From the IMG/VR virus record IMGVR_UViG_3300022602_000055: 31,206 bases of DNA; one strand, given 5' to 3'. Within the stretch, counting starts at the first letter, position 1; each line of letters begins with the position of its first letter. The position numbers were made by a program, and so were the translations under genes. This DNA is from an uncultured virus (IMG/VR IMGVR_UViG_3300022602_000055). Taxonomy: Duplodnaviria > Heunggongvirae > Uroviricota > Caudoviricetes. Below are positions 4,125 to 26,644 of this stretch, one piece after another. Under the pieces are notes generated by a model, which saw only the letters and a list, made by a program, of their open reading frames with translations, ran no database searches and was not told the DNA's origin.

Positions 4125-4133
4125 TATTGCTCC

Positions 4134-4973: not shown

Positions 4974-4981
4974 TTTATCTC

Positions 4982-6240: not shown

Positions 6241-6249
6241 GTGTTCTCC

Positions 6250-7931: not shown

Positions 7932-7956
7932 CCAATACTCCTAACGCTTCCCCTAC

Positions 7957-7992
7957 ATAGTGACATTAATTAATGAAAAAATCTCAATAAAC
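7957..7992 (-). promoter_or_regulatory. Predicted phage promoter GTTTA-N25-CACTAT
   Basis: One of eight sites with identical 25-nt spacing; upstream of the neck/fibre operon. Confidence 0.65.
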
Positions 7993-7993
7993 G

Positions 7994-8017
7994 AAAAAGG
8001 CGCCCAAGCAGGACGCC
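7994..8017 (-). terminator. Intrinsic terminator
   Basis: GGCGTCC-TGCTT-GGGCGCC followed by TTTTT. Confidence 0.75.
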
Positions 8018-8037
8018 CATCTCGCTTAGCTAATGCC

Positions 8038-8406
8038 TTAAATACTGGCAGCTAAATAACCTTTTTCCTTAAGGTGCAGAGCTACATTGCGTGTTACATA
8101 GTAAAGTTGCATAGCCTTAAAGCTGTAGTTATTTCCTTTACCAAGAGTCATGTTGTCAATATCTTGGATAACGCGAATTGGAACCTTATCTTCTTCTTCG
8201 TTAGTCAAATCGACAATATTGTCCACAATAACTGTCTCACGATTAGGTACTGTCGCATCAATAGGCTGGTCAAGAGCCACCTGAGCTTGTGCGCTAATCA
8301 TTGACATAGAAACTGCTTTTTCTTGTTGCTCTTTTTCAAACTTTTCGGCAAGAGCTGCACGAGTACGTCCTGTGACGTCAGTCGGGCTTGGTTGTTGCTT
8401 TGGCAT
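8038..8406 (-). CDS. Hypothetical head-associated protein
   Basis: AGGAG RBS; directly downstream of the major capsid gene. Confidence 0.7.
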   Translation of the reverse strand: MPKQQPSPTDVTGRTRAALAEKFEKEQQEKAVSMSMISAQAQVALDQPIDATVPNRETVIVDNIVDLTNEEEDKVPIRVIQDIDNMTLGKGNNYSFKAMQLYYVTRNVALHLKEKGYLAASI

Positions 8407-8436
8407 GTAAGTATTCTCCTAATTAGTATCTCGGTT

Positions 8437-8468
8437 AAAATAGAGCGAGCTCCGTAGAGCCCGCCCCC
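8437..8468 (-). terminator. Intrinsic terminator after major capsid gene
   Basis: GGGCGGGCTC-TACG-GAGCTCGCTC with cUACGg tetraloop, then TATTTT. Confidence 0.7.
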
Positions 8469-8483
8469 TCTGCTATTAAGTTG

Positions 8484-9557
8484 TTAGTTGGTTTCTGCAA
8501 TAACAACAGCCTGGTCAGTGATAAGACCGAGACCGAAGATTGAGTACCAAGCGATTGCGTGCTCACGACCGAAGTCCAAGATACCGCCATCGCGGAGCTC
8601 GACTGGGAGTGAGATAGCGTGACCGAATGCGTTATCTCCAATGAAGATAGCTGAGTAGCGGTCAGAACCACCGTTACCTGTGTAGGTAGCAGGAGTTGTG
8701 TAACCTCCACCAGGAAGAACTACAGGTGAAGCAACTGCAGTATCAGCGGTGTAGCTTGTACCAGCACCACCAGCAACCTTGAGAACCTGAGTGGTCTCAA
8801 TGAATACTGTGTCGTAGAGGCGACCGATTTCACCGAGCATGAAGTTACCTGGAGCAGCGTACTTTGTAACTTCGATGAACTCTGGGTTGTCGCGAAGTGT
8901 ACGGCTCTGGTGTGGGTGAACGAAAGCAACGTAGGTCTCGCCCAAACGTGGGATGTTCTTGGTAGCAAGGGTTTCGATGACGTCCTTGACAACGTGAGGT
9001 GTCAAGTAAGAGTTACCTGTCATTGAGGCACGTGATGTACCAAAGGTTCCGTATCCGTACCAGTTGTTAACTGCTGAAGATACTGATGAGCGGTCTTCAC
9101 CGTAAAGGGTTGAAGAAGCTGCATAGAGGGTGTCGCGTGAGAGCTGGTCAAGATAGACAGCCATGTTACGACCGAGAAGACGTGAAGCAGATGCCATCAC
9201 ATCGTCAAATGAGGCGTTGAGCAAAAGCTCTGAGATAGCAAGAGCATAACCATGCTCAGTAACAGTAATTGAGAACTGTTGTGCTGTAAGAGCGTTTGTC
9301 TGCATACGAACACCTTCGACGAGCGGTGAAGCAAAGCCGAGGTTGTTGTAACGCATGAAGTTAATCTGAAGACCAGGAGCTACTCCGAGCTCTGTCTTCT
9401 TTACTGCGAACTGCTCAAAGCGAAGGATAGGCATTGCTTGGAACAAGATTTCCTTGGACCAGATTGTCTGAATCGCTTGAGTCAGTTGGGTGTTAGTACC
9501 CGAATAAGCTGTTGGGGCTGCGGCGAGATTGCCAGAACCTGTAATTGCTGATGCCAT
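8484..9557 (-). CDS. Major capsid protein (HK97 fold, N4-gp56/P22-coat-like)
   Basis: 357 aa after scaffold; PGLQINFMRY, LVEGV, YVAFVHPHQ..TLR, GEIGRLYDTVFIET, DFGREHAIAWY; biased codon use; strong RBS. Confidence 0.92.
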   Translation of the reverse strand: MASAITGSGNLAAAPTAYSGTNTQLTQAIQTIWSKEILFQAMPILRFEQFAVKKTELGVAPGLQINFMRYNNLGFASPLVEGVRMQTNALTAQQFSITVTEHGYALAISELLLNASFDDVMASASRLLGRNMAVYLDQLSRDTLYAASSTLYGEDRSSVSSAVNNWYGYGTFGTSRASMTGNSYLTPHVVKDVIETLATKNIPRLGETYVAFVHPHQSRTLRDNPEFIEVTKYAAPGNFMLGEIGRLYDTVFIETTQVLKVAGGAGTSYTADTAVASPVVLPGGGYTTPATYTGNGGSDRYSAIFIGDNAFGHAISLPVELRDGGILDFGREHAIAWYSIFGLGLITDQAVVIAETN

Positions 9558-9600
9558 TTGGCTTTGACTCCTAAATTAGTCGTTGATGGATGAAGGTGGG

Positions 9601-10401
9601 TTAACTGAACATTCCCTGTGAACGACCTTGAGCGGTTTCGCTTAAGAGTCGTGAGCGGTATTTTGCGTATTCCGCCATTGGCATATTTGCAATCTCTTGC
9701 GGTGTCAATGTGCGTTGTTCCGAATTGGTTTCCAAAGGTCCAGCTGGGGGCGTAGTAACCCGTGTCCCCGTCATTTCGCGACGAATCTCTTGACGAGACG
9801 CCTTCGCATTGTTGAGAATAGAGTCTGTGCGAGCCTTCAAATCATTGATGCTTGCTTCAACTTCTTCTCTAGTATTTCCATTAACTAGGTCTACTAGCTC
9901 AGGTGCGATGTAATCGCGTTCCTGCTCAAGACGCTGGTTGCGGTAGTTTTGTAAATCAGACAACTGACGTTCTTTTTCCCAAAGTGAGAGGGCAGTTTCG
10001 CGAGCAAGACGCTCACGTTCCAACTCTTCCTTCCACTCTCGCTCCTTCAACTTAAGAAGGTCTTTAGCAGAAAGCTCTTCTTCAAGAACTTCGCGCTGTT
10101 TCTTATTAAGTTGTTCTAGCTCTTCTTGCTCACGTTTAGCTGCCTTAGCTGCGTCTTTGTCAGCTTCGCGCTTCTTTAGTGATTCAATCTCCGCCTTGAG
10201 CGAGTCAATTTGCGGATAGAGCTTTTCTTTTTCTTGCGAGCGTACTTTTGCTAAATCTTCCTCAGTGTAGAACTTCTGAGCATTAGCAGTTTTTGGAGTA
10301 GTAGTAAAAGCTGAGGCGTCAACGCCCTGGTTACCTACTACTGGGACTGTACCTGTCTCGGCTGCAAAGCCTTCAACAGCAACGTTGTTGATTTCTGACA
10401 T
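9601..10401 (-). CDS. Capsid scaffolding protein
   Basis: Charged coiled coil between portal and MCP; YTEEDL; C-terminal LTPQEIANMPMAEYAKYR. Confidence 0.8.
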   Translation of the reverse strand: MSEINNVAVEGFAAETGTVPVVGNQGVDASAFTTTPKTANAQKFYTEEDLAKVRSQEKEKLYPQIDSLKAEIESLKKREADKDAAKAAKREQEELEQLNKKQREVLEEELSAKDLLKLKEREWKEELERERLARETALSLWEKERQLSDLQNYRNQRLEQERDYIAPELVDLVNGNTREEVEASINDLKARTDSILNNAKASRQEIRREMTGTRVTTPPAGPLETNSEQRTLTPQEIANMPMAEYAKYRSRLLSETAQGRSQGMFS

Positions 10402-10412
10402 GCTTATATATC

Positions 10413-10441
10413 CTTATTCTCGGGGTCGTTTTCCAATGTAT
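10413..10441 (-). promoter_or_regulatory. Conserved 5' leader element, copy 1 (TTGGAAAACGACCCCG)
   Basis: 14/16 identity to 19272..19287; both flanked by ATACA upstream and TAAG downstream. Confidence 0.55.
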
Positions 10442-10476
10442 TTTCACGATTGACCTAACAGTTATTACAGTATTTA

Positions 10477-10512
10477 ATTTTTCTCCTACATTACGAAAAT
10501 GTCAGGCTAAAC
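10477..10512 (-). promoter_or_regulatory. Predicted phage promoter GTTTA-N25-AAAAAT (CTGACA -35, 17-nt spacer)
   Basis: GGTTTAGCCTGACA...AAAAAT upstream of scaffold-capsid genes. Confidence 0.7.
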
Positions 10513-10514
10513 CA

Positions 10515-12233
10515 TTATTTTTCGTAATCTTCTGGTACACGTCTTTGTGGGAGCTGCGTACCATAAGCTTCTGTTACTAGGCGGTTTCTGAGGTCCGCGT
10601 CACCTTGCTGAAGAATCATTTGAGCCTCATCTAGTACTGGAGTTGCTCCTCCAGCAGGGGATGGGGTTATTTGTTGACCCTCGCTAGTAGTTGGGAGAGG
10701 CACTGCGGTTCCATCTGGACCAGCCATCATTCCCGTTAATTGGGCAATTTCATTTTGAATCTCTGTCTGAAGCAGCTTAAGAGCGCCATCAGCCTTAGCG
10801 TCATCCATAAGTTCTTGACGGATTTCAGTAAGCTTTTCAGCAGGGAACATCTCTCCAAGCGTGCGCAAAGCACCTTCCTTAGACTCAAGCCCAAGGGTCA
10901 TCATGGTTTGAACTTCGTTCAAAAGGATGAGCTTGTCTAGAGGAAGTGGTGGTGGGAACTGGCAATAAGAGCGATAAGTAATAGGGTCTGAAGGGTCTAG
11001 CTGGGCTACCTGACCTGGCTTAAGAGGGGTAGTGCTTTCATTAGGGTTCCAGATAAAGGTCTCTGGTTCTTTAACTGCAAGGTTTAAAAGAATTAATTCG
11101 TTTACACGCTCTAGGGCATGTGCGTATTGAACAATCTTTTGGTGGTAACGCGCCATCAATGGTTGGAATTGAATGCTAAGAGCAACACCTGAAGTGTTAG
11201 AGATAGGCTGTGCTTGACCAAGAGCGGTCTCTGGGACACCCACCATCTCGTGCATGGCTTTCTTGAGCATGTCCATAAACTCAAGACCGCTTTTTAGACC
11301 CTGAGCACCGCCTTCAAGGTTTTCCACTTTGGCGTCTTTAGGAAGTCCACCCCAGACTTTATTAGCTCCTTTTTCGAGCTGGGAAGCTTTAGCTCCAATA
11401 ATAACTGTGACGGGAGCAGCGTGGTAATTAACAATATCGGCAATATCAGTAGCAACCTCGTTATAAGTGCGATTGATATTAATAATCTGGTCACAATCAC
11501 TGAGACCCCATGGACTACCGCTAATGCGAATATTAGGAGCATGGATAACAGGTATTGTGCCCAGCGGATTGGGGCGAGAATCGATGAGCTCGTCATTGAT
11601 ATATTCCTCGATGGTGTCGTCTGTCAAGATTTCAGTGTAGGTAAATACCTGACGTGTTCCTTCTAGTGATGTGCCCCAGAAACGATACTTGAGCTTAAAT
11701 CTAATTAAACGTTCACGGTCATGTGGGTGAAACTCTGGAAATGCAAACGACGCGTTCAGGGGAAGAATACGAACACGTCCTGGGTGAACGCGACCAGCAG
11801 AGTCTTCATAGGCTTCTTCATAAGCAACTTTGATAAAGCAGTCACCTGAAACCGTACCTTGCTGACCAATTTCCCAAAGCACAGTTGCCTTGTTGTTATC
11901 TACTTCCCATACACGCTCAAGAAGGTCTGGGACAATAGCTTCGGTCTCTTTAGGGCTACGGAAGTTAACGCCCTTGCCGAATGTAAAGTTAATGATGAAG
12001 TCTGAGAAAGCTCTAAAATAATTTAGAGCAATTTGAGGTTCGCCTGCTTGACGGCGATAAGAATAGTGGTGTCCAAGATACATTGCCCAGTTCAGGGAGT
12101 ATCTATTTAAGCGTGGACCATGTACTTCAAACTCTTCATCCGCTAGCTCTACAAGTCCGAGAGGAGAGATGGAGATAGTTAAATCGCTTGACGCCGCCCT
12201 GTAACTAGGGGGTGAAAAGTCAATTGAACTCAC
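10515..12233 (-). CDS. Portal protein (SPP1 gp6-like)
   Basis: 572 aa between terL and scaffold; FTFGKGV, GDCFIKV, NPLGTIPVIH, GLSD, SGVAL motifs. Confidence 0.9.
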   Translation of the reverse strand: MSSIDFSPPSYRAASSDLTISISPLGLVELADEEFEVHGPRLNRYSLNWAMYLGHHYSYRRQAGEPQIALNYFRAFSDFIINFTFGKGVNFRSPKETEAIVPDLLERVWEVDNNKATVLWEIGQQGTVSGDCFIKVAYEEAYEDSAGRVHPGRVRILPLNASFAFPEFHPHDRERLIRFKLKYRFWGTSLEGTRQVFTYTEILTDDTIEEYINDELIDSRPNPLGTIPVIHAPNIRISGSPWGLSDCDQIININRTYNEVATDIADIVNYHAAPVTVIIGAKASQLEKGANKVWGGLPKDAKVENLEGGAQGLKSGLEFMDMLKKAMHEMVGVPETALGQAQPISNTSGVALSIQFQPLMARYHQKIVQYAHALERVNELILLNLAVKEPETFIWNPNESTTPLKPGQVAQLDPSDPITYRSYCQFPPPLPLDKLILLNEVQTMMTLGLESKEGALRTLGEMFPAEKLTEIRQELMDDAKADGALKLLQTEIQNEIAQLTGMMAGPDGTAVPLPTTSEGQQITPSPAGGATPVLDEAQMILQQGDADLRNRLVTEAYGTQLPQRRVPEDYEK

Positions 12234-12292
12234 AACACATCCTTATCTATCCAGGCTAACAATACTAATAAGTCGATAAATCTACAGACGAC

Positions 12293-12601
12293 TCACGGTA
12301 ATTGATTTATGTTCTTTTTGACCTTTTTCCTAACAGGTCTAAGAACACGTTTCTTCTCTTCTTCTTCTTTTTTCTCAATAGCTTCATGTGCGTAATCGCG
12401 AAGACGTGGGTCCACTTCTCGCTTAGAAGCTACGAACTTTCCACCCATTTGTTGATACTTAGCGTGAATCCAGTGACCGCGTGCGGGGGAGTTTTTTGAA
12501 AACTTTGCGCTTGCTTGCGCAGCAATGGTGTTAAATAAACGTGGGTTGGAGGGCACTCCGATAGGACCTTCGGATACTTCTTTACCTCTGATAAGTGCCA
12601 T
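12293..12601 (-). CDS. Basic hypothetical protein
   Basis: AAGGA RBS; NPRLFNTI..QASAKF...KYQQMGGKF helical motif; Lys-rich tail. Confidence 0.65.
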   Translation of the reverse strand: MALIRGKEVSEGPIGVPSNPRLFNTIAAQASAKFSKNSPARGHWIHAKYQQMGGKFVASKREVDPRLRDYAHEAIEKKEEEEKKRVLRPVRKKVKKNINQLP

Positions 12602-12665
12602 TAATAATCCTTAGATAGGTCCCAGCCCCCAACCTTTAGGGTCAGGGGTTGGTCGTCTCTTTTAG

Positions 12666-13064
12666 TTAGTCGTTAACGACTGCTGGGTTAAGGCGCTTTT
12701 GATTTGAGCCGCTACGAGCTACCTCTTCAAAAGCCATCTCTGCTGACTTTCCGAAAGCTCCTTGTGAGAACTCACTCAAGGTGTTCTGTGCTTCTACCCA
12801 TGCTGCAGAACCAACGTGAGCGCGTTCGCGCATTGTCTCTTCAGCTGTCTTTGTGTGAACTGGGTTGTTGCAGTTTGGGCGACCCGCTGCTGCGATAAAG
12901 CCTTGTGAAGCTCCCTTTGAAAACTCTGCTGGAACATCTGTATCAGTTGCAATACCCTCTTCAAAACGAAGTGGTCCGCGCTGTCCTGGTGTTGCTGGGG
13001 ACATCTTGCGGTCATACATGTTTCCTGGAACTTCAGGGAATTTTGGTGTTGGTGCAATTGCCAT
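12666..13064 (-). CDS. Hypothetical protein in packaging module
   Basis: AGGAG RBS; own GTTTA promoter; RFEEGIATDTDVP and RERAHVGSAAWVEA motifs. Confidence 0.75.
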   Translation of the reverse strand: MAIAPTPKFPEVPGNMYDRKMSPATPGQRGPLRFEEGIATDTDVPAEFSKGASQGFIAAAGRPNCNNPVHTKTAEETMRERAHVGSAAWVEAQNTLSEFSQGAFGKSAEMAFEEVARSGSNQKRLNPAVVND

Positions 13065-13103
13065 TAGTTTAACTCCTAAATTAGGTTGAGGACCTCAGTT
13101 AAA

Positions 13104-13139
13104 AGTGTGCTACTTAATGGTAAGTAATACAGGCTAAAC
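13104..13139 (-). promoter_or_regulatory. Predicted phage promoter GTTTA-N25-CACACT
   Basis: GGTTTAGCC box at fixed spacing. Confidence 0.7.
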
Positions 13140-13144
13140 CTAGA

Positions 13145-14734
13145 TTATCTTTGGAAAAAGACATTTTGCGACATTTCTACCTGAGGCATGGTCAGGTCAA
13201 GCGTCAGGCTACAAGCAATAGCCAATGAGTCCGCATAGTCATCGTGAGCATGAGCCTCATCTGGGGCAGCAGCCAAAAAGTTAGGACCAGTGAACTTTGT
13301 TTCCAAATCAGTCATCTGTTGAACAAACCTCTTGTAGGTGCGAAGTCTGCGGGTTTTAGCGTGGGCAGGAAACCCAATTAAACGGCGGTCAATAAGAGCT
13401 TTAAGATGTTTCCAACGCTTAGACTGCTCAGGCTGACTACTACCGATAGCGTGAACCTCTGTTCTAGGTAGCAAGATTTTAAGGCGTTGAGCAACTGCGT
13501 CACCTACGCCGTTAGCGTCAACTCCAACAGCAAGAACATCGTAGTTACTCAAAAAGTTAACAATTTGAAAGTACTGGTCTTCCCAATCATCTCCCTGTAT
13601 CTCAAGCCAGTTAAGGATACGATGGTCGAAGTATCCAAATTCATCTGGTCTATCCCAATCAACCCAAACAACTGTGACTACCGTAGAGTCCATCTTTCTA
13701 GCAGGGTCAATGCCTACAACAACAGGAGTTCTTTGCCAAGCGCGAACAGTCTCTGCAGACTTATCTCCCAGCTCTTCCATAATGTTGCTGGTAACGAACA
13801 TTCCTCGTTCCAGTAACCATTTGTTACAGTAAGACATCTGAAACTCGTCTGAGTCTTCACCGATACGTAACTTTTCTTTTTTAATGAACTTGGCGTAATT
13901 AGGGTTGTACTTAGAAACTTCTCGCCAGTCCCACTCAAAGTGATTCTGTCTTTTTGCCCTAGCGGTCTGAACTCTTTTGTTCAGCTGAATGGAGCGGTAA
14001 AAATTATTTTTGTGCGTGGTAGGTGTACCTGTTTTAACCATAGTACCTGAGTAGTACGCAAGCATAGGAGAGATTGACTTGGAGACCACAAAGTCATCTG
14101 CCTCTTGACACTCATCAATAACAATGAGGTGAAAGGATTTAGATTCAATCTTTGCGCGAGGGTTAGCGGTCATCATCATTAAAGATGAGCCAGATTTCTT
14201 TAAACGAATTTGGCGAGTAACCCCTGGAACCTTACCAAGACTGTCATCAATCTCTGGGTCACCAAGAATCTCTAGTGCACGCTCTGAGGTAAGGCGGTTA
14301 ACAGTTCTACCAAATAGAGTTTCTACCTGACCTTCGACTGGGGCGAACATACCAATCCAGACTCCGTTAGAGAATTTGCCGAGTAAATCGGGATACATCT
14401 TAGCTAGGCGGGGGAGAAGAACCATGAGAGTTGCTACTGTATTAGCAATGGTTTCTGACTTACCTGACTGACGGGCTGCTAAAGCTGTTATTTCTTCACC
14501 GTCGTTAATTATTACTGACTCAATGATTCGTCTAGCCAAAGGCATTTGGTAGGGGTGGAGCTCATGCCCAACAAGAGCAGTTTGAAATTCAATGCAACGG
14601 TCTACTAGTTTTTTAACAAATTCTTTAGACAGCTCATCGAGCTCTTCTTCTTCCTCAACGGGGAGATTTTCTTCATCCTCGTCTTCAAGAAACTCATCTT
14701 CTTCAAAAAATTCTAGTTCTGTCATAATACCCAT
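13145..14734 (-). CDS. terL: Terminase large subunit
   Basis: Walker A ARQSGKS, Walker B LIVIDECQ, motif III GTP, nuclease VGIDPA and DDYADS; true start probably ATG at 14725. Confidence 0.95.
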   Translation of the reverse strand: MGIMTELEFFEEDEFLEDEDEENLPVEEEEELDELSKEFVKKLVDRCIEFQTALVGHELHPYQMPLARRIIESVIINDGEEITALAARQSGKSETIANTVATLMVLLPRLAKMYPDLLGKFSNGVWIGMFAPVEGQVETLFGRTVNRLTSERALEILGDPEIDDSLGKVPGVTRQIRLKKSGSSLMMMTANPRAKIESKSFHLIVIDECQEADDFVVSKSISPMLAYYSGTMVKTGTPTTHKNNFYRSIQLNKRVQTARAKRQNHFEWDWREVSKYNPNYAKFIKKEKLRIGEDSDEFQMSYCNKWLLERGMFVTSNIMEELGDKSAETVRAWQRTPVVVGIDPARKMDSTVVTVVWVDWDRPDEFGYFDHRILNWLEIQGDDWEDQYFQIVNFLSNYDVLAVGVDANGVGDAVAQRLKILLPRTEVHAIGSSQPEQSKRWKHLKALIDRRLIGFPAHAKTRRLRTYKRFVQQMTDLETKFTGPNFLAAAPDEAHAHDDYADSLAIACSLTLDLTMPQVEMSQNVFFQR

Positions 14735-14770
14735 AGTCTATGAGATGTCGGTTGCCTGGGTTACATAAAC
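14735..14770 (-). promoter_or_regulatory. Predicted terL promoter GTTTA-N25-TAGACT (near-leaderless)
   Basis: Same spacing as seven other sites; no SD before terL. Confidence 0.65.
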
Positions 14771-14816
14771 CCAGGCTAACCTTGTTACCACGACACGGAG
14801 AGAGGAAACACGCGGT
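14750..14816 (-). ncRNA. Candidate structured small RNA or leader with anti-SD loop
   Basis: TATAGT -10 six nt upstream; stem ACCGCG/CGUGGU with loop UGUUUCCUCUCUCCGUGU; second 13-bp stem GGUU(A)GCCUGGGUU/AACCCAGGCAACC. Confidence 0.5.
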
Positions 14817-14822
14817 AGCTTA

Positions 14823-14844
14823 ACTATACAGGTATTGTCGACAA
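14823..14844 (-). promoter_or_regulatory. Predicted -10 (TATAGT) with perfect palindrome TTGTCGACAA in spacer
   Basis: Seen directly in sequence. Confidence 0.5.
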
Positions 14845-14848
14845 AACG

Positions 14849-15097
14849 CTATTTGCGAATAAGCGTGTCGCGTACTTTGAGAGTGTCTACTACAGCGTGT
14901 AGAGCCTCAGCACCATTAAGGGCTTCTTCTAAGTAATAAGAATCGCGAGTTCTCATAAATGCGCTTAAGCACTTTCCTATCTCATTTACGCAGTTTTCTG
15001 CCCACATCTCCAGCTCTTGGCTAGGGATGCGTTGAATTCTTTTAGACACTTTTTCAGAGAACGGCTTAGTCCAAGGCTCTTTATTTCTTTTCAGCAT
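14849..15097 (-). CDS. Hypothetical helical protein
   Basis: GAGGA RBS; overlaps upstream gene. Confidence 0.65.
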   Translation of the reverse strand: MLKRNKEPWTKPFSEKVSKRIQRIPSQELEMWAENCVNEIGKCLSAFMRTRDSYYLEEALNGAEALHAVVDTLKVRDTLIRK

Positions 15098-15374
15098 TCC
15101 AGTCCTCTATGTCCTCTGTGCTTACAGGAATAGTTCTTGCCTTCATTGCTTGAGTAATTAGGTAAGCAGCATCGTCATCAGATATGTTTTCGTGGCTTTT
15201 GTAGAACCAACCAACATAGTAGCCTGGAATAGTTTTAGGAGCTCTAAAGATTAAACAACGACCTTTTCTAAAACGCTCTTCAGTTTCTTGCGTAGTCCCT
15301 AGTTCTATTACAGGGAAGAAGTTCTTATGGTAATAGTTAAGCTTTCCAGCATATAGTGGTCCAAATGATTTCAT
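15081..15374 (-). CDS. Hypothetical protein
   Basis: ATGA overlap with upstream gene. Confidence 0.65.
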   Translation of the reverse strand: MKSFGPLYAGKLNYYHKNFFPVIELGTTQETEERFRKGRCLIFRAPKTIPGYYVGWFYKSHENISDDDAAYLITQAMKARTIPVSTEDIEDWNAEKK

Positions 15375-15847
15375 TCGTTAAACATCACTCTCGTATTTTC
15401 GTCCATCTCTTCAGGGTCAAAATTAACATCCATGACATATTGAAGCCCGTTGGGACCCCTGCTGTCAAACCCCTCATTCCACAAAAACTTGCCTGTAGAT
15501 TGGGAAGTTTTCAGTCTAGTCCATACATCTGCTGGCACACCTCCCCACGACACCCAAGCACCATCAGGAAAACCCACTACAAGCTTTTGTTGGTCTCGGT
15601 TATAAGCAATCTTTTTAGCTCTAGGTTGTTTATGCTTCGCGGTAGGAGCTGTAGTTGGAGCAGTCTGCTGAGTCCAAGGAGTTGACCTAGCAATCTCCCA
15701 ACGCTCTTTCTTCTTTTCTTCAGGGAAGTAAATGTCATTGTAAGAAGGGACTACGTTGTTAGATGGTGTTTGACCTCGGTCAAAAAATATCTCTTCGGGA
15801 TTAAGCCTCGGTCTCTTCCTCGCCATAATCATCTCCTTCACATACAT
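15371..15847 (-). CDS. KTSC-domain protein
   Basis: IAYNRDQQKLVVGFPDG...GVPADVWTRLKTSQSTGKFL matches the KTSC pattern; start probably at a downstream Met after GAAGGAG. Confidence 0.7.
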   Translation of the reverse strand: MYVKEMIMARKRPRLNPEEIFFDRGQTPSNNVVPSYNDIYFPEEKKKERWEIARSTPWTQQTAPTTAPTAKHKQPRAKKIAYNRDQQKLVVGFPDGAWVSWGGVPADVWTRLKTSQSTGKFLWNEGFDSRGPNGLQYVMDVNFDPEEMDENTRVMFNE

Positions 15848-16139
15848 GGTCTTCGGTCTCTTCTTCGCGAACTCTTACAAAGCAGTTGGCGCAACGCAAC
15901 CATTTTATAGGTTTAAATTTATTTTGAGCGGTAGAGCCTAAAGGGGTGTCACTTCCATCTTCTGGAAACGCTGATTGATAATCCACAACAATCTTTGGTT
16001 CAGAGGCAGGATTACCCTGAGTCATCTCTGGTGGGAAAGGTCCCCTAGGAGCATGAGCATGTTTAGGAACTGGATGGGCTTGAGGAGCGTCAATTCTTTG
16101 GATTCTAGTAGCAAAGATACTCTCATCAAATGCTCCCAT
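15801..16139 (-). CDS. Hypothetical protein with C-terminal Zn finger
   Basis: CANC...HVC; TAATG overlap with upstream gene. Confidence 0.65.
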   Translation of the reverse strand: MGAFDESIFATRIQRIDAPQAHPVPKHAHAPRGPFPPEMTQGNPASEPKIVVDYQSAFPEDGSDTPLGSTAQNKFKPIKWLRCANCFVRVREEETEDHVCEGDDYGEEETEA

Positions 16140-16339
16140 TAGTTTTCGTCCGTCTTTTTCTTTCTAGTAGTCGTCTTCTTTACTGGCTCTTCTACGATAG
16201 GCGCAGGGATGTCGTAGTGACCTGCCATTGCCGTTGCGTGTAGGCGTAAAGGCAAGCATTTAGCGCAGTAGTAGATTGAGTTAGCGCCTTTATTCTCTAC
16301 TAAGTAGATTGCTTGGTTTTCGCAATTAGCACACTTCAC
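16139..16339 (-). CDS. Small Zn-finger protein
   Basis: AAGGAG RBS, GTG start; CANC...CAKC; basic tail. Confidence 0.7.
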   Translation of the reverse strand: MKCANCENQAIYLVENKGANSIYYCAKCLPLRLHATAMAGHYDIPAPIVEEPVKKTTTRKKKTDEN

Positions 16340-16355
16340 GATATCTCCTTATGGA

Positions 16356-16379
16356 AATGGGGGCATCTCTGCCCCCATT
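16356..16379 (-). terminator. Stable hairpin ending the lysis cluster
   Basis: AATGGGGGCA-GAGA-TGCCCCCATT perfect 10-bp stem, GNRA loop, short U tract. Confidence 0.65.
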
Positions 16380-16392
16380 AATTTGATTGATG

Positions 16393-16578
16393 TTACTTGG
16401 TTGTTGAAGCTGCTGAGAAGTGCTCGTAAGTGGACTTCAAAACAGGTCCGAAAACACCTATAAGTGCTGCCCATGCAACTTGCTTAAGGTGGTGGTTTCC
16501 ACCCTGCCAGATTGCAACTCCAGCGACTATGGTTGAAATAATGTAATGCTCAAATAGAGCCTTGGTCTTTGCGTTCAT
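16393..16578 (-). CDS. Small two-TM holin-like protein
   Basis: Two hydrophobic segments; GAGGAG RBS; lysis cluster. Confidence 0.6.
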   Translation of the reverse strand: MNAKTKALFEHYIISTIVAGVAIWQGGNHHLKQVAWAALIGVFGPVLKSTYEHFSAASTTK

Positions 16579-16580
16579 GT

Positions 16581-16808
16581 TTACTCCTCGATGTTGTTTG
16601 CGTATGGCGTTATGATGTGCGAATCAGCCTGCACGTTGGGTGAAGACGAATTCGACGTATGAGATGATACACCAGCTAGAGCCGCTGTGGCAACGGCTAC
16701 AAGGTGTTTCGGGTCAGTAGAATATCCTGTGGCAGCCCAAGTAGCCATTCCAGCGGAACCCGCTATAGCTAAGTGGGCTGGGCTACTGAAGTTAAGCTTT
16801 ATCCCCAC
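16581..16808 (-). CDS. Small membrane protein, holin-like
   Basis: Two Ala/Gly-rich hydrophobic segments; lysis cluster. Confidence 0.5.
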   Translation of the reverse strand: MGIKLNFSSPAHLAIAGSAGMATWAATGYSTDPKHLVAVATAALAGVSSHTSNSSSPNVQADSHIITPYANNIEE

Positions 16809-17118
16809 GGATGTGCTCCAATATCTCTTTTACGTGATGTCGGAGCTCCTCAATGTGATTGTGGGTCTCTTGGTCAAGTTTTAGGTCTTTAGTAATTATA
16901 CGCCTGTCTTCATCCCCTGAGCGGTTAGTCGCGTTCAAGAGAAGTCCTGACAAGAGGATAGATTCTAAAGATACGGTTAATGTGAGCAGATTAAATGGGT
17001 ACGGGTCAAAAGCCGCGAAGGTCATCCAAAAAGACCAAAAGACTAGATGGATAATTAAGAACCAAGGTGAGCCAAAAGCGGAGGAGCACCAGTCAGATAT
17101 TTTCTGAAAGTGTCTCAT
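16792..17118 (-). CDS. DUF1003-like membrane protein
   Basis: FGSPWFL...FDPYPFNLLTLTVSLE...NR...DR signature. Confidence 0.8.
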   Translation of the reverse strand: MRHFQKISDWCSSAFGSPWFLIIHLVFWSFWMTFAAFDPYPFNLLTLTVSLESILLSGLLLNATNRSGDEDRRIITKDLKLDQETHNHIEELRHHVKEILEHIRGDKA

Positions 17119-17984
17119 TCATTAGCCTTAGCCACCATAGACGTGTAAGTAGCCGCATCAATACCTTTGCCCTTTGAAGCTTTAAGCCCTGGGTATAGCC
17201 CTTGATAGACAGGGATTAGAGCAATCTCTTCCTCAGTCAAAACACTTGATACAAGGTTTGCAGGCATCAACCCAGCGTTAGCTAAAGCTTTGGCTACTAC
17301 TATCTCTACCTTGCCTTTTGCCCCCGCTTTAAACACAGAGGAGCCAGGGAACGGAGGAGCAACGATTACTGTAGGTTTAGTCGTAGGAATTGGGGCTGGA
17401 GTATTTGAAGTATGGATAGCTGCTACACCACCACCTGTAAGCGCTGTAGCTCCTGCCACACCTGCTGCAAGACCTTTATTCTGTCCAAGAGATTTAGTAG
17501 GAGTAGAGCTTCCAATATAGGCAGGACGAGCGATAGCCATCACATATAGATAAGGACGATGGCGCCTATAGCATCCATCCCCGTTTGCTTGGTTTCCTGT
17601 ATAAGACTCTGGACCTGTGTTGAAGCCTATTGTGGTTAGTCCGTCTTTAGAAGCACCTTCGACAATCTCTACGTGGTCCGCAACGCCATTTCCTGACCAG
17701 GAAAAAAATACAATATCCCCTGGAAGTGCAGAGTACTTGTCAACAATACGCTTGTTCTTTTGGAACCAAGTAAGACCCGCAGGGCAGTAGGAGAAGCCTT
17801 TAGGAGTTTGAGCAGCGACAAGGTGGGAGGCATTTGCTTGGGCAAATACCCAGCTAACTCCCATCGCGCAATAGCTCTCGTTAGGAATCCCATACCAAGA
17901 CCCGTATGGGTTCTCGTTATTAGGTCCTTCGACAAACCCAATCTGAGTACGAGCAATGTTTACGATGTCAACGCCAGAAGTCAT
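17115..17984 (-). CDS. Endolysin, CHAP amidase/peptidase
   Basis: ARTQIGFVEGPNNEN.YG.WYG, YCAMGVSWVF (catalytic Cys), PGDIVFF, HVEIV (catalytic His); C-terminal PFPG.. cell-wall-binding-like region. Confidence 0.85.
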   Translation of the reverse strand: MTSGVDIVNIARTQIGFVEGPNNENPYGSWYGIPNESYCAMGVSWVFAQANASHLVAAQTPKGFSYCPAGLTWFQKNKRIVDKYSALPGDIVFFSWSGNGVADHVEIVEGASKDGLTTIGFNTGPESYTGNQANGDGCYRRHRPYLYVMAIARPAYIGSSTPTKSLGQNKGLAAGVAGATALTGGGVAAIHTSNTPAPIPTTKPTVIVAPPFPGSSVFKAGAKGKVEIVVAKALANAGLMPANLVSSVLTEEEIALIPVYQGLYPGLKASKGKGIDAATYTSMVAKANE

Positions 17985-18421
17985 TATTCGCCATCCTTAA
18001 TTACCTCAGCTGCTGGAGCGGTACCAGCCTTACGAAATCTAAAAGTTTCCCACAGCGGTGCAGGAATCTCGTGAATACCAAATCTAGTTCTGTGATGTGC
18101 AGAACAAAGCACTTCAAGGTTTCCTGGGGACTCAATCCATTCTTGAAAATCTTCATCATTTTCAAAATGAAGACCAAATGCCTGTTCAATTTTATGCGGG
18201 TCCATATCGTTGATTTGACTGAACTCTACAAAACTGTGGTGCAGTTCTGGACCACCAGAGCATAGGTCATCATCAATAATGCACTTCCACAAACCTTGCC
18301 GTTTAATCCTTGCCTTAGCTTGATTGAATAAGTGATAGTGCGGGTCGCTCTCACGCGGCTCATGCTCAGGAACCGATACAGCGAGGTGAAGATTCATTTT
18401 CTGCTTATGCGCATCTGTCAC
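17984..18421 (-). CDS. HNH-like Zn-binding protein
   Basis: C.....C....ELHH ... NLEVLCSAHHR...GIH. Confidence 0.6.
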   Translation of the reverse strand: MTDAHKQKMNLHLAVSVPEHEPRESDPHYHLFNQAKARIKRQGLWKCIIDDDLCSGGPELHHSFVEFSQINDMDPHKIEQAFGLHFENDEDFQEWIESPGNLEVLCSAHHRTRFGIHEIPAPLWETFRFRKAGTAPAAEVIKDGE

Positions 18422-18921
18422 TGGTAAATCAATCTTTCAGCTAAGTCGCCTGGGACCACTAGGTAGTCAGGCTTGTCCAGTAAAGAGATTCCAGCTTTAT
18501 CGTAAGCTTCAGCAACAAGCTCAGAACAGATAAAGCCATCTTTCCTAGCTAAGTAAGTAAAGAAGGGTAGGTTTATCTTTAAGCCTAAGATTCTTAAAGC
18601 TAGCAAAGAAATAGTGAAGAAGTCGTAGGGACGCCCTACAAAAGACTCAGCCGCCTCTGCAATTTTGATTCGCTCAATAGGGGTAAGCATTTCGTGCTTA
18701 TTCCATGCTATGTTCTTGTAGTCAGAGATATTTACTATCTTTACCCCAGTAGGGTCGGCGCTAACGGCTTTGCCTTCTCCAATGTAGACAATAGCGTGGT
18801 TCCACCTGCTCGTCGTTCCTAGACGGATTAGCAGCCCAAAGAACCCATTAGTCTTTACAACGCCGTAATCTCCAATTCTAGGCTCATACGCGCTAAGCTC
18901 TTCTAACACCCTCTTCAACAT
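18418..18921 (-). CDS. Permuted papain-like NlpC/P60 amidase (YiiX/YaeF family)
   Basis: GD...IR..T.SRWNHAIVYIG; GRPYDF; FICSELVAEAY; PGDL. Confidence 0.85.
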   Translation of the reverse strand: MLKRVLEELSAYEPRIGDYGVVKTNGFFGLLIRLGTTSRWNHAIVYIGEGKAVSADPTGVKIVNISDYKNIAWNKHEMLTPIERIKIAEAAESFVGRPYDFFTISLLALRILGLKINLPFFTYLARKDGFICSELVAEAYDKAGISLLDKPDYLVVPGDLAERLIYQ

Positions 18922-19243
18922 GAGCCTGTACCCGCCCTTCTAGCCTAGATAAGTCCTTAACTACCTCAATTTGATGTGTTCGAAGTTCTTTGACATCTGC
19001 CTTAACTTCAGCAATATCTTCTTTTAAGCTTTTGACGATGGGAAGTATTTGTAGTTTAATCGCATCGCTGACAGAGCTGCCGTGATTAGGTTTGAGCTCT
19101 TCTAAGCTTGGGCGCATCTCTTCCATGTACTCTTTAAAGGCTTCTGTTGAGTGCTGTCTTACATACCAGCGAGCAATCCCACCAACAGTACCTGCAATAA
19201 ATAGAGATGATGAGGCTGTCGCCACAATTGTTGCTGCGTCCAT
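18893..19243 (-). CDS. Membrane-anchored coiled-coil protein (lysis-associated)
   Basis: N-terminal TM, ELKPNHGSSVSDAI motif, coiled coil; first gene of lysis operon. Confidence 0.65.
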   Translation of the reverse strand: MDAATIVATASSSLFIAGTVGGIARWYVRQHSTEAFKEYMEEMRPSLEELKPNHGSSVSDAIKLQILPIVKSLKEDIAEVKADVKELRTHQIEVVKDLSRLEGRVQAHVEEGVRRA

Positions 19244-19432: not shown

Positions 19433-19451
19433 CATTTTGAGAGGAGCAATA

Positions 19452-19985
19452 ATGCTTAATATCAGAATCAACGTCACTATCGACGTTAAAAAGTGGGCGA
19501 CTGCCCTTGCAACATTTGCACTAGTAATCGGACATATGATTACTCCAGCACAGGCTGTAGCACCAGAAGTATATAAGTTCAAGACTTCTTTTGATGCAAT
19601 TCCCGCAACTGTGCATCTTACATATTTAAATGTAACGGCAACTAAACAACAAGCAGCCGATGCTATTACAAGCCCTTATGCTAAATACTTTGACCCAGAA
19701 GCTCTGGCATTTTTAACTGTTTATGCAAAAGGTCAAACTTTGCAGGAATGGAAGTGCTTGGATACACTCTGGAACCATGAAAGCCATTTCAACCCTAAGG
19801 CTCTTAATATGGGTTCAAAGGCATACGGCATAGCTCAATTCCTACCTACAACGTGGGGAAACTATAAGTTAACTAAAACAAGTAGCGCTGCTTTACAAAT
19901 TAAATACGGATTACATTATATTAAAGCGAGATATGGAGACGCATGTAGTGCATGGGCTTTCTGGCAAAAACACAGTTGGTATTAA
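19452..19985 (+). CDS. Secreted lytic transglycosylase (SLT/lysozyme-like, actinobacterial type)
   Basis: GAGGAG RBS then ATG 19452; signal-like N-terminus; CL..LWNHES.FNP.A, AYGIAQF, QI.YGL.YI..RYG..C.AW...SWY. Confidence 0.88.
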   Translation: MLNIRINVTIDVKKWATALATFALVIGHMITPAQAVAPEVYKFKTSFDAIPATVHLTYLNVTATKQQAADAITSPYAKYFDPEALAFLTVYAKGQTLQEWKCLDTLWNHESHFNPKALNMGSKAYGIAQFLPTTWGNYKLTKTSSAALQIKYGLHYIKARYGDACSAWAFWQKHSWY

Positions 19986-20226
19986 CGCCCCTACATTTGA
20001 CGGTTCACAGTTATGCAGTCAAACAGACCCAGAAATATTTTTTCCAGAGATGGACACATCTCCAAGTATTGTCAGGGCTGCAAAGAACATCTGCCGTAGA
20101 TGTCACTTTCAAGAACCTTGTCTAGAGTACGCTCTACGGACAGTTCCAATAGGAATCTGGGGGGGTACTTCAGATAAGGAAAGGCAAGAGCTCAGAAGGC
20201 TTAGAAAGCAAAAAGCCGCCCTTTAG
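19933..20226 (+). CDS. whiB: WhiB-family Fe-S transcription regulator
   Basis: C...DPEIFFP...AK.IC..C....C; GIWGG turn; basic tail RRLRKQK; start uncertain. Confidence 0.95.
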   Translation: METHVVHGLSGKNTVGINAPTFDGSQLCSQTDPEIFFPEMDTSPSIVRAAKNICRRCHFQEPCLEYALRTVPIGIWGGTSDKERQELRRLRKQKAAL

Positions 20227-20238
20227 GGGCGGCTTTTT
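20210..20238. terminator. Bidirectional intrinsic terminator
   Basis: AAAAAGCCGCCC-TTTAG-GGGCGGCTTTTT between convergent genes. Confidence 0.9.
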
Positions 20239-20251
20239 GTTTGGGTTGGGA

Positions 20252-22057
20252 TTAACCAAAGACGTTGAATGTTCCGTCTTGAGTTCCTGCATTTTCACCA
20301 GTTGTTTGCTTGTAGACAACAATGTTTACAAGGGTTCCAAGGGTCTGTGAGCCTGTTAAAGCTTGGCTATAGACTGTTCCAGCGTTGTTAGCTGTAGCAC
20401 CAGTTGTACGGTAGGTGATAGTTCCAGTGTTGAAACCAACAACTCCGAGCTGACGGTCAGCTTCTTTAACTGTCAAACCAGTGATGGTTGGAACAGTTGC
20501 TGTTGAAGCAGAAGCTGCGATTGTTACAGTTGCGGTACCATTGACACCTGTAAGGGTTGTCAATGTTGGGTCAGATGTAATTGTGATGCTGCTTGCTGTA
20601 CCCGTGATGGTGAAGGTAGTTGATGTTGCAGCAGTAATAACATAGCTAGCGTTGTATTGTCCAAAGCCAGTTGTTGAGTTACCAGCTGCGTCAGTTACTG
20701 GGTAGTAAGTCTTCAATGGAGCATTGAAGTATGAAGGGTTAGTGAATGTAGGCGCGTAGTACTGGGTACCAATCGGCTGAGTTGAGCCAGCTGATACGTA
20801 GTTGTACAAACCTGTGATGCTAACGGTTTGTCCAGTGCTGAAGTTGTTGTTAGCGGTGAATACGAGAGTTCCGCCAGCAGCAGATGTATAAGTTACGCCA
20901 GTAATCTTAGCGACCAAGTATGAGCCTTGGTTGAAGTTACCTTGTGTACTAGTTGGTTTGTAAGATGTTTGGTTGTTAAGAGGGAACGCATCGTAGTTGT
21001 TCAAGAAGTTTTCTGCGTTACCATTTGGAACTGTGATAGGTCCAACTGGTCCTACGTTGAGTGTCAACTGGGTCTCTGTCAATGGAATTGAAGCAAAGTC
21101 AGTTGTCTTAGACCAGCCGTAGTCAGCGCCAATACCTGGAAGGGTATACTCGTTAACTGTTGCAGTACCAGTCTGAGTAGTAAGAGCTGCAGAAGGAAGC
21201 GTCTGGCTAGCAGTTACGACAGGGGTTACTGTGAACTGTGTCGCAGAAGATGATGCAACAGTACCTGTGAGGTTGTAACCAGAAGATACTGAAGCAGTTG
21301 CGCTACCGAATGATGGTGAACCAACAGTGATAGATGCTGGAGAAGCTACAGCAGCGGTGAAGCTGGTGTTAGCAACAACTGCGCTTACGTACCATACACC
21401 GTTAAGAGTACCTGTTGTTACGCCTGTGATACCAGCGATGGTAACAACAGAACCAACAACGATACCAGTAGTGTTTGCTGTGCTGAAGGTAACAGTTGTA
21501 GAAGAGCCAGAACCAGATGCAGAAGCTGCGGTAATGGTAGGTGTAGCGGTTGCACCAAGACCAGTGGTTGTAACTGTCTGACCTGTAAGGAAAGAGTTTG
21601 CAGCAGTGTATGTGATTGTTCCGCTTGAGTTAGACGCTGCTGTTACAGTAGCTGTCTCAGCGTCTCCATAAGCAGAGCCTGTGGTTCCGCCAGATAGATT
21701 GTAGGTAAAGCCAGAAGCAAGACCAGTGGTTGAGTTTGTTACTGCGGTTCCTACAACGGTGCTGGCTACAGTAAATTGGCTACCTGAAGCTGATGCGATA
21801 ACAGCATCTACGAGGTTAAAGGTGACTGTGGAAAGTCCGCTGACAGTAACCTTCTGTCCAGCGGTAAAAGAGTTAGTAGCTGTGTATGTGATGACGCTAC
21901 CATTGGAAGAGGCTGCTGTAACTGCTACAGATGCTGTTCCAGAACGGTCATCATTGGTTTGAGGAGGAACGTTACCCCAAACGAAATCGACGGCTACGTT
22001 ACCTGTTTGCTGTACGCCAGTATAGGTTTTATAGCCAGAATCGCGAATGACTGCCAT
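20252..22057 (-). CDS. Ser/Thr-rich putative virion protein with repeated beta domains and C-terminal PASTA domain
   Basis: Four ITA/VTA...F..GQ.V...GL...N...FT repeats; VPTITGLTVKEADRQL..GF...GTVYSQ...GTLVNIVVY PASTA pattern. Confidence 0.75.
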   Translation of the reverse strand: MAVIRDSGYKTYTGVQQTGNVAVDFVWGNVPPQTNDDRSGTASVAVTAASSNGSVITYTATNSFTAGQKVTVSGLSTVTFNLVDAVIASASGSQFTVASTVVGTAVTNSTTGLASGFTYNLSGGTTGSAYGDAETATVTAASNSSGTITYTAANSFLTGQTVTTTGLGATATPTITAASASGSGSSTTVTFSTANTTGIVVGSVVTIAGITGVTTGTLNGVWYVSAVVANTSFTAAVASPASITVGSPSFGSATASVSSGYNLTGTVASSSATQFTVTPVVTASQTLPSAALTTQTGTATVNEYTLPGIGADYGWSKTTDFASIPLTETQLTLNVGPVGPITVPNGNAENFLNNYDAFPLNNQTSYKPTSTQGNFNQGSYLVAKITGVTYTSAAGGTLVFTANNNFSTGQTVSITGLYNYVSAGSTQPIGTQYYAPTFTNPSYFNAPLKTYYPVTDAAGNSTTGFGQYNASYVITAATSTTFTITGTASSITITSDPTLTTLTGVNGTATVTIAASASTATVPTITGLTVKEADRQLGVVGFNTGTITYRTTGATANNAGTVYSQALTGSQTLGTLVNIVVYKQTTGENAGTQDGTFNVFG

Positions 22058-22106
22058 TATGTTTCCTGTTCTCTAGAGAAAATCCCCGTGCACTGGGGTT
22101 GTCTCT

Positions 22107-22142
22107 AGTATCCAACAGGATTATCTGACTGTCAGGATTAAC
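22107..22142 (-). promoter_or_regulatory. Predicted phage promoter GTTAA-N25-GATACT (CTGACA -35)
   Basis: One-mismatch box at the same spacing; contains palindrome CTGAC-A-GTCAG. Confidence 0.6.
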
Positions 22143-23112: not shown

Positions 23113-23387
23113 TATTCTCCAGGGTATTCGTTCCCGACAACAATGTCAGGCTTGTCAGTTATATCTACAAATGTTGGCTGAGCTAAAAACATAGCCGCGT
23201 ATTGGTTATTTGCCTGAATAGTCTCCATGACTCTTCCGTTCAAGATTACTCCTAAACGAACTCCTCCTGGAACATCTGCTCTGGACATTGCATCCTTAGG
23301 AGGACCATGACCCTCGACATCGTTATGGTGGTGATGACCATGTGCAGAGAGCTCTTCAAGCTTCTTATAGTTACGCCGTTTGAACAT
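23112..23387 (-). CDS. Small fibre-associated protein with His tract; paralog of 24326..24571
   Basis: HGHHHHND; RLGVILNGRV...AAMFLAQPTFVDI. Confidence 0.65.
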   Translation of the reverse strand: MFKRRNYKKLEELSAHGHHHHNDVEGHGPPKDAMSRADVPGGVRLGVILNGRVMETIQANNQYAAMFLAQPTFVDITDKPDIVVGNEYPGE

Positions 23388-23388
23388 T

Positions 23389-24302: not shown

Positions 24303-24325
24303 ATTATGCTCCGAATGTTTTAGTG

Positions 24326-24571: not shown

Positions 24572-24588
24572 AGTTTACCTAACTTCTG

Positions 24589-26260: not shown

Positions 26261-26284
26261 GATGTCCCTTCAGGAGTCTAATGG

Positions 26285-26446: not shown

Positions 26447-26482
26447 ACAGTAGAGTAATTGTATATAAATTAACGGCTAAAC
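26447..26482 (-). promoter_or_regulatory. Predicted phage promoter GTTTA-N25-TACTGT
   Basis: GGTTTAGCC box at fixed spacing; heads the adhesin/modification cassette. Confidence 0.7.
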
Positions 26483-26644
26483 CTAGTTTTGACTCTCCCC
26501 GTTCGGACCTTTTCCAGGGTTCTGCCAAGTGCGGATTCTTGGGCGCTCCTGAGTATTTAGGAATAAACGCCTAACCCCAAAGCGAGAATCATTGACGGTA
26601 ACTTGCTCAATCTTAGGTTGTTTAAAGTTATCTTTGCGCTTCAT
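26483..26644 (-). CDS. Small basic hypothetical protein (53 aa)
   Basis: Manually read: AGGTGG RBS, ATGA overlap; MKRKDNFKQPKIEQVTVNDSRFGVRRLFLNTQERPRIRTWQNPGKGPNGESQN. Confidence 0.65.
   Translation of the reverse strand: MKRKDNFKQPKIEQVTVNDSRFGVRRLFLNTQERPRIRTWQNPGKGPNGESQN

Follow-up and report, generated by a model that had tools for sequence, protein, structure and literature searches.

A conserved promoter, pyrimidine-rich loop and covarying hairpin upstream of terL in a group of uncultured tailed phages: a possible attenuator of terminase expression

What is the structured segment that lies directly upstream of the large terminase gene (terL) in an uncultured tailed phage? The segment occupies 14750..14816, minus strand, of a 31,206-nt stretch of DNA (IMG/VR record IMGVR_UViG_3300022602_000055), and the whole of that stretch is called the window here. 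From its letters alone, without database searches, it had been read as a small RNA with an exposed anti-Shine-Dalgarno loop, which could act as a translational repressor in trans or as an attenuator of terL. The attenuator option fits the evidence best. The element is read here, tentatively and with a probability of about 0.45, as a promoter-proximal leader or attenuator of terL, the short terminated product of which may or may not act in trans. It most likely throttles terminase expression rather than being a free-standing repressor RNA.

Locus, host and relatives

The ORFs of the window were compared with Pfam and PHROGs, and a tailed-phage gene set was recognisable. In the ORF list, the minus strand carries every long ORF at about 130-19243 and at 20252-31063. 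Collagen-like tail fibres and several HNH endonucleases are also encoded (Pfam/PHROGs). The genes and sites to which the text refers are as follows.

8484..9557, minus strand: major capsid protein (Pfam/PHROGs)
10515..12233, minus strand: SPP1-type portal (Pfam/PHROGs)
13145..14734, minus strand: terL, large terminase subunit (PHROG 2, E = 3.2e-30; Pfam Terminase_6C, E = 3.2e-08)
14849..15097, minus strand: 82-aa ORF, predicted helical hairpin (AlphaFold pLDDT 90.9)
15371..15847: KTSC-domain protein, three genes upstream of the element (PF13619, E = 8e-09; syntenic in 68 loci)
17115..17984, minus strand: CHAP endolysin (Pfam/PHROGs)
19933..20226, plus strand: WhiB-family gene (Pfam)
20201..20271, between the convergent WhiB gene (plus) and 601-aa ORF (minus): bidirectional terminator made of an A run, a G+C stem and a T run
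20252..22057, minus strand: 601-aa ORF, with no Pfam or PHROG match at E <= 0.001

The sole plus-strand island of the window (19437..20226), an SLT-domain protein followed by the WhiB-family regulator, occupies a 1-kb gap among the minus-strand genes. The WhiB gene indicates an actinobacterial host, and so do the nearest cultured TerL proteins, which come from Streptomyces phages (54-55% identity). Two relatives are complete records of 98 and 100 kb, which indicates that the window represents about one third of a genome of about 100 kb. TerL begins with a very acidic extension of about 35 residues that varies in length among relatives; many tblastn alignments of TerL start at residue 36, and an acidic stretch also opens the TerL of Streptomyces phage BRock.

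IMG/VR is rich in close relatives (TerL 84-100% identical), with at least 602 confirmed stretches. The terL-upstream regions were taken from the best 80 of these (at least 602) relatives. After removal of duplicates, of one locus that was too short (L030) and of one with a non-homologous upstream region (L077), 61 distinct sequences remained, the window included. All 61 belong to one fairly tight phage group, and counts of sequences given below are not counts of independent events.

The element sits on the coding (minus) strand within the 114-nt gap between the 82-aa ORF and terL, and it is kept at the same place in the 60 other distinct sequences. A pattern that spans the last part of the pyrimidine run and the 5' arm of hairpin 2 was matched by 41 viral contigs; a homologue of the 82-aa ORF lay upstream in 41/41 and terL downstream in 40/41, the 41st contig ending 196 nt past the match. 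A covariance model found one full copy per record in five long related records, and only terminator-like partial matches elsewhere. The loop 21-mer was also searched in species-representative genomes, and its one match, in a long ORF of a high-GC Pseudomonadota MAG with no hairpin, was set aside as chance.

The conserved gene order is a small zinc-ribbon-like ORF, a 112-aa ORF, the KTSC-domain ORF, a 97-aa ORF, the 82-aa ORF, the element, terL, two small ORFs, the portal promoter and portal. The proteins encoded upstream of the element are only 40-56% identical among relatives, so that the non-coding element seems conserved no less well than they are. For the 82-aa protein no PDB match was obtained at E <= 0.001, and its 131 homologous clusters bore no functional name save an isolated and discordant 'retron-type reverse transcriptase' label; it was considered as a regulator and dropped, since neither fold nor family comparison of this helical hairpin was informative. 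The KTSC domain has been suggested to bind RNA, and the KTSC-domain protein is a candidate partner of the leader RNA.

Promoter P1, the pyrimidine loop and hairpin 2

Across the 61 sequences the common order is an optional TTRTCGAC box, TAnnnT, 6-7 bases, (U)GCC, a pyrimidine run ending in CCGU, GGC(A), a short spacer, a long hairpin, a T tract, TA(G/A/C)A(C/A)T, an SD-like GG and the terL ATG. The corresponding features of the window, together with the second promoter of the same class, are listed here.

14835..14844, minus strand: upstream box of promoter P1, the perfect 10-bp palindrome TTGTCGACAA (TTRTCGAC class), sole perfect copy in the window
14823..14828, minus strand: P1 -10 hexamer TATAGT, with TG directly upstream at 14830..14829
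14816, minus strand: predicted transcription start (A), placed by spacing alone as the seventh base after the -10
14787..14816, minus strand: stem-loop 1, 6 bp (one G-U) formed by 14816..14811 with 14792..14787, loop at 14793..14810
14750..14781, minus strand: hairpin 2, 4 + 9 = 13 bp with a one-base bulge and a 5-nt loop
14735..14740, minus strand: TAGACT box, -10-like, just before the SD-like GG and terL ATG
14734 and 14725, minus strand: two in-frame terL ATGs, 9 nt apart, with GGG between them at 14730..14732
12259..12279, minus strand: second promoter of the P1 class, before the portal gene (TTATCGAC, 7 nt, TATTGT)

The placing of +1 at the base of stem 1 by the TATAGT hexamer agrees with the coordinates, in that TATAGT (14828..14823) is followed by six bases and then by A14816. 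Positions T1, A2 and T6 of the hexamer are invariant in 61/61, and TG at -3/-2 of the hexamer (TGn) is present in 42/61; across the relatives P1 thus has the TAnnnT and TGn of a sigma-A type promoter with an extended -10. The window copy has its TG immediately against the hexamer, without an intervening base. At the seventh position past the -10, the 61 sequences carry G (27), T (20), A (11) or C (3).

A TTRTCGAC box followed by 6-9 nt and TAnnnT stands at the P1 position in 38/61 sequences, about -110 from the terL ATG. The motif class is met again about 2.45 kb downstream (about +2450), before the portal gene, in 23/61, and it is rare elsewhere in the 61 loci (3 sense, 11 antisense). On the coding strand of the window TCGA(C/T), 6-9 nt and TAnnnT occur in this order twice, both times in intergenic DNA (before the element and before portal), and the other strand has no such site. 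Of the two complete relatives, one has exactly these two TTRTCGAC-class sites and the other has four. Because its class recurs essentially only before portal, P1 looks like a structural-gene promoter, and the palindromic box (perfect in the window) suggests a dimeric DNA-binding factor. The portal promoter is followed by a leader of about 25 nt, an SD and the start codon, with no hairpin. The difference between terL and the portal gene is the insert of about 75 nt that separates promoter from gene.

Three side observations concern possible regulatory sites. A related complete genome (G002, locus L090) has TTGTCGACAATT twice near sense coordinate 75345, about 30 nt apart and far from terL; the two copies may form an operator pair for whichever factor recognises the promoter box. 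The 9-mer GGTTTAGCC has three perfect copies on the minus strand of the window (10505..10513, 13132..13140 and 26475..26483), all intergenic and on the coding strand, where about 0.24 perfect copies are expected in 31 kb; two of them sit 1-5 nt past the stop codons of portal and terL. This 9-mer may be another promoter or operator box, and the 'GTTTA box' that the sequence-only reading assigned to the terL promoter may be the same motif. The terL-upstream region of Streptomyces phage BRock (TerL 55% identical; L081 1340..1415) has a TGTCAAC box, with TAGAAT 7 nt further on; the region has no pyrimidine leader and no hairpin, and an antisense small ORF region lies between the P1-like site and the homologue of the 82-aa gene. 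The resemblance of this TGTCAAC/TAGAAT pair to P1 is a lead, by motif likeness, for a possible ancestral promoter.

For 14750..14816 the ViennaRNA energy was -27.2 kcal/mol, where shuffles averaged -15.25 (sd 2.8; z = -4.27) and 0/200 of them folded as well; for the whole 114-nt gap z was -2.6. The predicted fold was exactly the two-hairpin structure described beforehand, with the 18-nt loop of stem 1 at 14810..14793 in the sequence then given, and with 13 bp in stem 2 at 14781..14750.

Conservation of the two stem-loops in homologous loci was unequal: hairpin 2 covaries and the loop sequence is kept, but stem 1 is weak. Stem 1 has two invariant C-G pairs in the relatives, an outer pair in 44/61 and a third pair that is G-C in 50, A-U in 7 and A.C in 4; the 7 A-U cases appear, from the sequences, to fall in three lineages. 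The 6-bp version is confined to the subclade of the window (window, L005, L002/L025), and stem 1 is absent from the RNAalifold consensus. The loop that it encloses is 16-26 nt long in relatives and always holds a long pyrimidine run. Folding of the 5' domain gave a median MFE of -3.7 kcal/mol and left most of the pyrimidine run (median 17 nt) unpaired. A short stem at the 5' end that presents the loop remains a fair description, but conservation lies in the sequence of the loop and not in the stem. The pyrimidine run remained unpaired in MFE folds and no alternative (antiterminator) pairing was predicted. On sequence grounds the loop looks like a site where a protein, Rho or another RNA may bind.

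Hairpin 2 is the best-supported part of the element. It was predicted by RNAalifold, with 98.0% of cells paired (55 distinct rows), changes on both sides in 8/11 pairs, and a covariation score that was reached by 0/500 shuffles. When the partners were slid by one to three columns, pairing fell to 33-59%. Two positions alternate between G-U and A-U (26/23 and 28/23), which argues that the pairing is selected in the sense-strand RNA and not in duplex DNA. The same positions bear on the proposal that the polypyrimidine/polypurine tract and inverted repeat are read as double-stranded DNA, either by the terminase as a pac-like site or by a regulator. The fixed position suits such a site, as does its place just before terL and behind the gene of a small conserved protein, possibly a small terminase subunit. 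However, the sense-strand G-U (26) and U-G (28) pairs would be mismatches on the other strand or in the duplex, the tract has no repeated boxes, and contig ends are not piled up at the element; a DNA-level site is very improbable.

In the 12 nt after the core stem, 52/61 sequences have at least 7 T, and a run of at least 4 T is found in 54/61. The typical form in relatives is five T, one G and four T, and an A-rich flank 5' of hairpin 2 is able to pair with this tract. The design of stem and T tract is the same as that of the convergent-gene terminator of the window at 20201..20271. Hairpin 2 with its T tract (52/61) would thus act as an intrinsic terminator in the relatives. Only the window stands apart, with 2 T in the 12 nt past the core stem: its copy has the G+C-rich hairpin of an intrinsic terminator and no U tract, whereas the relatives have both. 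The earlier caveat that there is no U tract is therefore right for the window copy and wrong for the relatives. A discrete species of 65-75 nt, which had been expected, is not predicted for the window copy, which is without the T tract that would yield one.

The box that follows the hairpin resembles, by its letters, a near-consensus -10 element. It reads TAGACT in 31, TAAACT in 24, TACACT in 4 and TAAAAT in 2 of the 61 sequences. A leader peptide ending at the TAG or TAA of the box was considered and dropped, as four sequences have TAC there. The spacing from box to ATG is 9 nt in 35, 10 nt in 13, 8 nt in 5, 6 nt in 3, 0 nt in 3 and 28 nt in 2, and an SD-like GG is found in this spacer in 54/61, 5-6 nt before the ATG. 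In the window the distance from the box to the second ATG (14725) is 9 nt, as in most relatives. This spacing suggests that 14725 may be the real terL start, and that the first ATG may have arisen via an A-to-T change in an SD-like AAGG. The same two-ATG arrangement is seen in L008 and L018. In L047 and L073 the spacing is 6 nt with no GG, and the box, if used as a -10, would give a leaderless terL mRNA.

A terminator followed by a promoter is a common arrangement at module borders, and the locus could be a plain module boundary, in which hairpin 2 ends the upstream small-gene cluster, P1 and TAnACT are ordinary promoters, and the pyrimidine run is merely a 5' stabilising structure. The terminator design, found elsewhere in this phage, agrees with this, and so does the lack of a loop partner in the phage scans described below. 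It is an unlikely reading, since P1 lies upstream of the terminator and not downstream in 61/61, sequence conservation extends over the pyrimidine run and the CCGT motif behind it, next to an 82-aa protein that is only about 56% identical (median), and the P1 hexamer and TAnACT box are held 72-83 nt apart in the 61 sequences.

Action in cis or in trans

The loop had been held complementary to two ribosome binding sites in the window. The sites themselves exist: AGGAAACA lies at 22067..22060, just before the ATG of the 601-aa ORF, and GAGAGGA precedes the SLT-domain ORF on the plus strand. Pairing with either is no better than chance, as foreseen in the accompanying caveat that short anti-SD matches can arise by chance, and the 'PASTA' label given to the 601-aa ORF has no Pfam support at E <= 0.001. 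When the loop was run with RNAduplex against the 51 translation-initiation regions of the window, the best energy was -18.8 kcal/mol and the two named sites ranked 8th and 6th. Composition-preserving shuffles of the loop gave -18.3 +- 2.0 kcal/mol, and 34.5% of 200 matched or beat -18.8. In mean energy over all sites and in the count of sites at or below -10, the real loop did not differ from the shuffles.

The search was carried to the relatives. An ungapped complementarity scan of +-3 kb in the 61 loci gave p <= 0.05 in 3 and p <= 0.01 in none (200 shuffles each), and a whole-genome sense-strand scan of the two complete relatives gave p = 0.94 and 0.06, the site at p = 0.06 being simply a very strong SD. 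No phage target proposed by these predictions beats composition-matched shuffles in the window, in the +-3 kb of the 61 relatives or in the two complete genomes. Two further candidates were rejected. For pairing in cis with the GA-rich codons of the acidic TerL N-terminus, the terL 5' region was among the top 5% of windows in 24/61 loci, but its median rank fraction of 0.078, where the best of 17 windows should reach about 0.04, shows no enrichment. An 11-nt perfect complement in an upstream DUF1003-like gene of a few relatives reached p = 0.03-0.065 against shuffles and is absent in the window.

The Rfam search that had been proposed gave 0 matches at gathering score over the window. With Rfam 15 at E <= 10 on 14650..14950 (301 nt), one 13-bit chance snoRNA match was obtained, outside the element, and there was no tRNA or tmRNA match to the element. 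Two lake-water metatranscriptome runs that contained 5% of the sampled words yielded three short contigs, in terL and an upstream ORF, none of them over 14735..14848. Literature searches on actinophage non-coding RNA, promoters and terminators, on freshwater actinophages and on phage leader or premature-termination RNAs brought up no description of the element.

An sRNA gene, in its textbook anatomy, likewise joins a strong promoter to a strong terminator close behind and exposes a conserved, unpaired C/U-rich loop. The element could accordingly be a stand-alone sRNA of about 70 nt that acts in trans, its C/U-rich loop pairing with SD regions of host or phage without a chaperone, and with terL transcribed separately from the TAnACT box. 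In favour of such a gene, a conserved promoter belongs to the unit itself and a canonical terminator closes it in the relatives, the loop sequence is conserved while stems drift, as in sRNA seeds, and the pyrimidine run is predicted to be unpaired. The invariant -10-like box past the terminator, and L047 and L073 with no SD, also agree with it. The host is actinobacterial, and the 6C sRNA of that phylum reportedly binds mRNAs via C-rich loops with no need of a chaperone (PMC6486639). Of the parts of a trans-acting repressor, the conserved promoter motif, the structured covarying RNA and the pyrimidine segment, predicted to be mostly unpaired, have support, but its targets stay at chance level: both named sites, all others in the window, the +-3 kb of the relatives and the two whole genomes were no better than shuffles. 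The window copy is without a T tract, the unit was never found away from terL, the upstream box is common to P1 and the portal promoter, and the SD-like GG after the box argues that the terL mRNA starts upstream of the box. A free-standing sRNA is, on balance, somewhat unlikely.

Several lines lead instead to the leader or attenuator. The P1 class, shared with the portal promoter, ties P1 to structural genes. Hairpin 2 covaries, is followed by a T tract in 52/61 and is designed like the terminator at 20201..20271. The position between the 82-aa gene and terL is strictly fixed. The window keeps its hairpins without the T tract, a loss that a leader can bear but that would damage an sRNA gene. 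In the phage scans, no target in trans exceeded chance. Since the SD-like GG immediately follows the box in 54/61, the translated terL mRNA should start upstream of the box, and since P1 is the only conserved promoter there, the terL message should pass through hairpin 2.

The attenuator would work as follows. P1, a promoter of the structural-gene class with its TTRTCGAC box and extended -10, would start transcription at about 14816. The first 30 nt or so of the RNA would form a short 5'-terminal stem that presents the loop with its long pyrimidine run. In nearly all relatives the covarying hairpin and T tract would then stop most polymerases and free an RNA of about 70 nt, and the weak Shine-Dalgarno and terL would be reached by read-through transcripts only. 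Terminase would in this way be kept low relative to the portal gene, which has the same promoter type and no hairpin. The pyrimidine loop is a likely handle by which some factor could modulate termination or mRNA fate. In the window phage, where the T tract is lost, the hairpin is probably a plain structured leader, and most P1 transcripts would enter terL.

Some points speak against the leader reading. No antiterminator pairing is predicted, so regulation would need a factor, and among the 51 ORFs of the window no Q- or N-type antiterminator, NusG-like factor or sigma factor was found with Pfam and PHROGs. The -10-like box and the leaderless terL that it would give in L047 and L073 suggest that the upstream unit may be independent of terL. 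Simple attenuation leaves the conservation of the pyrimidine run unexplained.

The leader and sRNA models are not exclusive, since a terminated leader can act in trans too. A late RNA of dual function would gate terL in cis, while in trans its loop would serve as an anti-SD-like decoy on purine-rich ribosome binding sites of the host or of early phage genes, in an actinobacterial host free of chaperones. This is a speculative extension to which we give a low probability. If true, the RNA would be a translational shut-off switch, co-regulated with the portal promoter, in a large and globally abundant group of lake actinophages.

Comparison with known systems

To our knowledge, gene regulation in the freshwater Actinobacteria phages of about 100 kb is almost uncharted, and none of these phages is a laboratory model. 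The locus offers a candidate class of structural-gene promoters with a TTGTCGACAA-type box, a covarying terminator, and a conserved pyrimidine-rich loop at the point where expression of the packaging genes begins. A new RNA family could be founded on the alignment and the covariance model.

In phage lambda, the unit formed by pR', 6S RNA and tR' is governed by Q-dependent antitermination; its default product is a short RNA, and the late genes need read-through. This unit is the closest in anatomy and position, with a promoter before the late and packaging genes and an intrinsic terminator within about 100 nt, and in the relatives a promoter-proximal terminator likewise stands before late genes. 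Unlike the lambda unit, the window (about 1/3 of the genome) has no Q-family gene among its 51 ORFs and no TAnnnT pause element in the first 25 or so transcribed bases, while a -10-like box follows the terminator; the leader carries a pyrimidine-rich loop, and the host is actinobacterial.

The HK022 put RNA is an antiterminator RNA that acts in cis. The element resembles it as a two-stem-loop RNA directly past a phage promoter and upstream of the genes controlled, and differs from it in that the second stem-loop is itself the terminator, stem 1 is weak and there is no Rfam match. Listeria SreA is a terminated riboswitch or leader transcript that also acts in trans. As with SreA, a promoter-proximal terminator would yield a short RNA with a possible second regulatory life; unlike SreA, no ligand-binding fold or alternative pairing is predicted, and a role in trans is purely hypothetical.

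Closest in loop chemistry are the C-rich-loop sRNAs of Gram-positive bacteria, such as actinobacterial 6C (Rfam RF01066). The likeness lies in an unpaired C-rich loop, a phylum without Hfq and a proposed pairing with G-rich ribosome binding sites. The element has one C/U-rich loop where 6C has two C-rich loops, is encoded by a phage, is fixed upstream of terL, gave no Rfam match even at E <= 10 (301-nt region), and has no target found.

The element is a new and well-conserved RNA motif of a known general kind, and is filed under neither the lambda unit nor the C-rich-loop sRNAs. If the loop is a regulatory handle, control of the late genes here would be unlike that by lambda Q, lambda N or HK022 put; should the short RNA act in trans, phages would have in it a counterpart of the C-rich-loop sRNAs.
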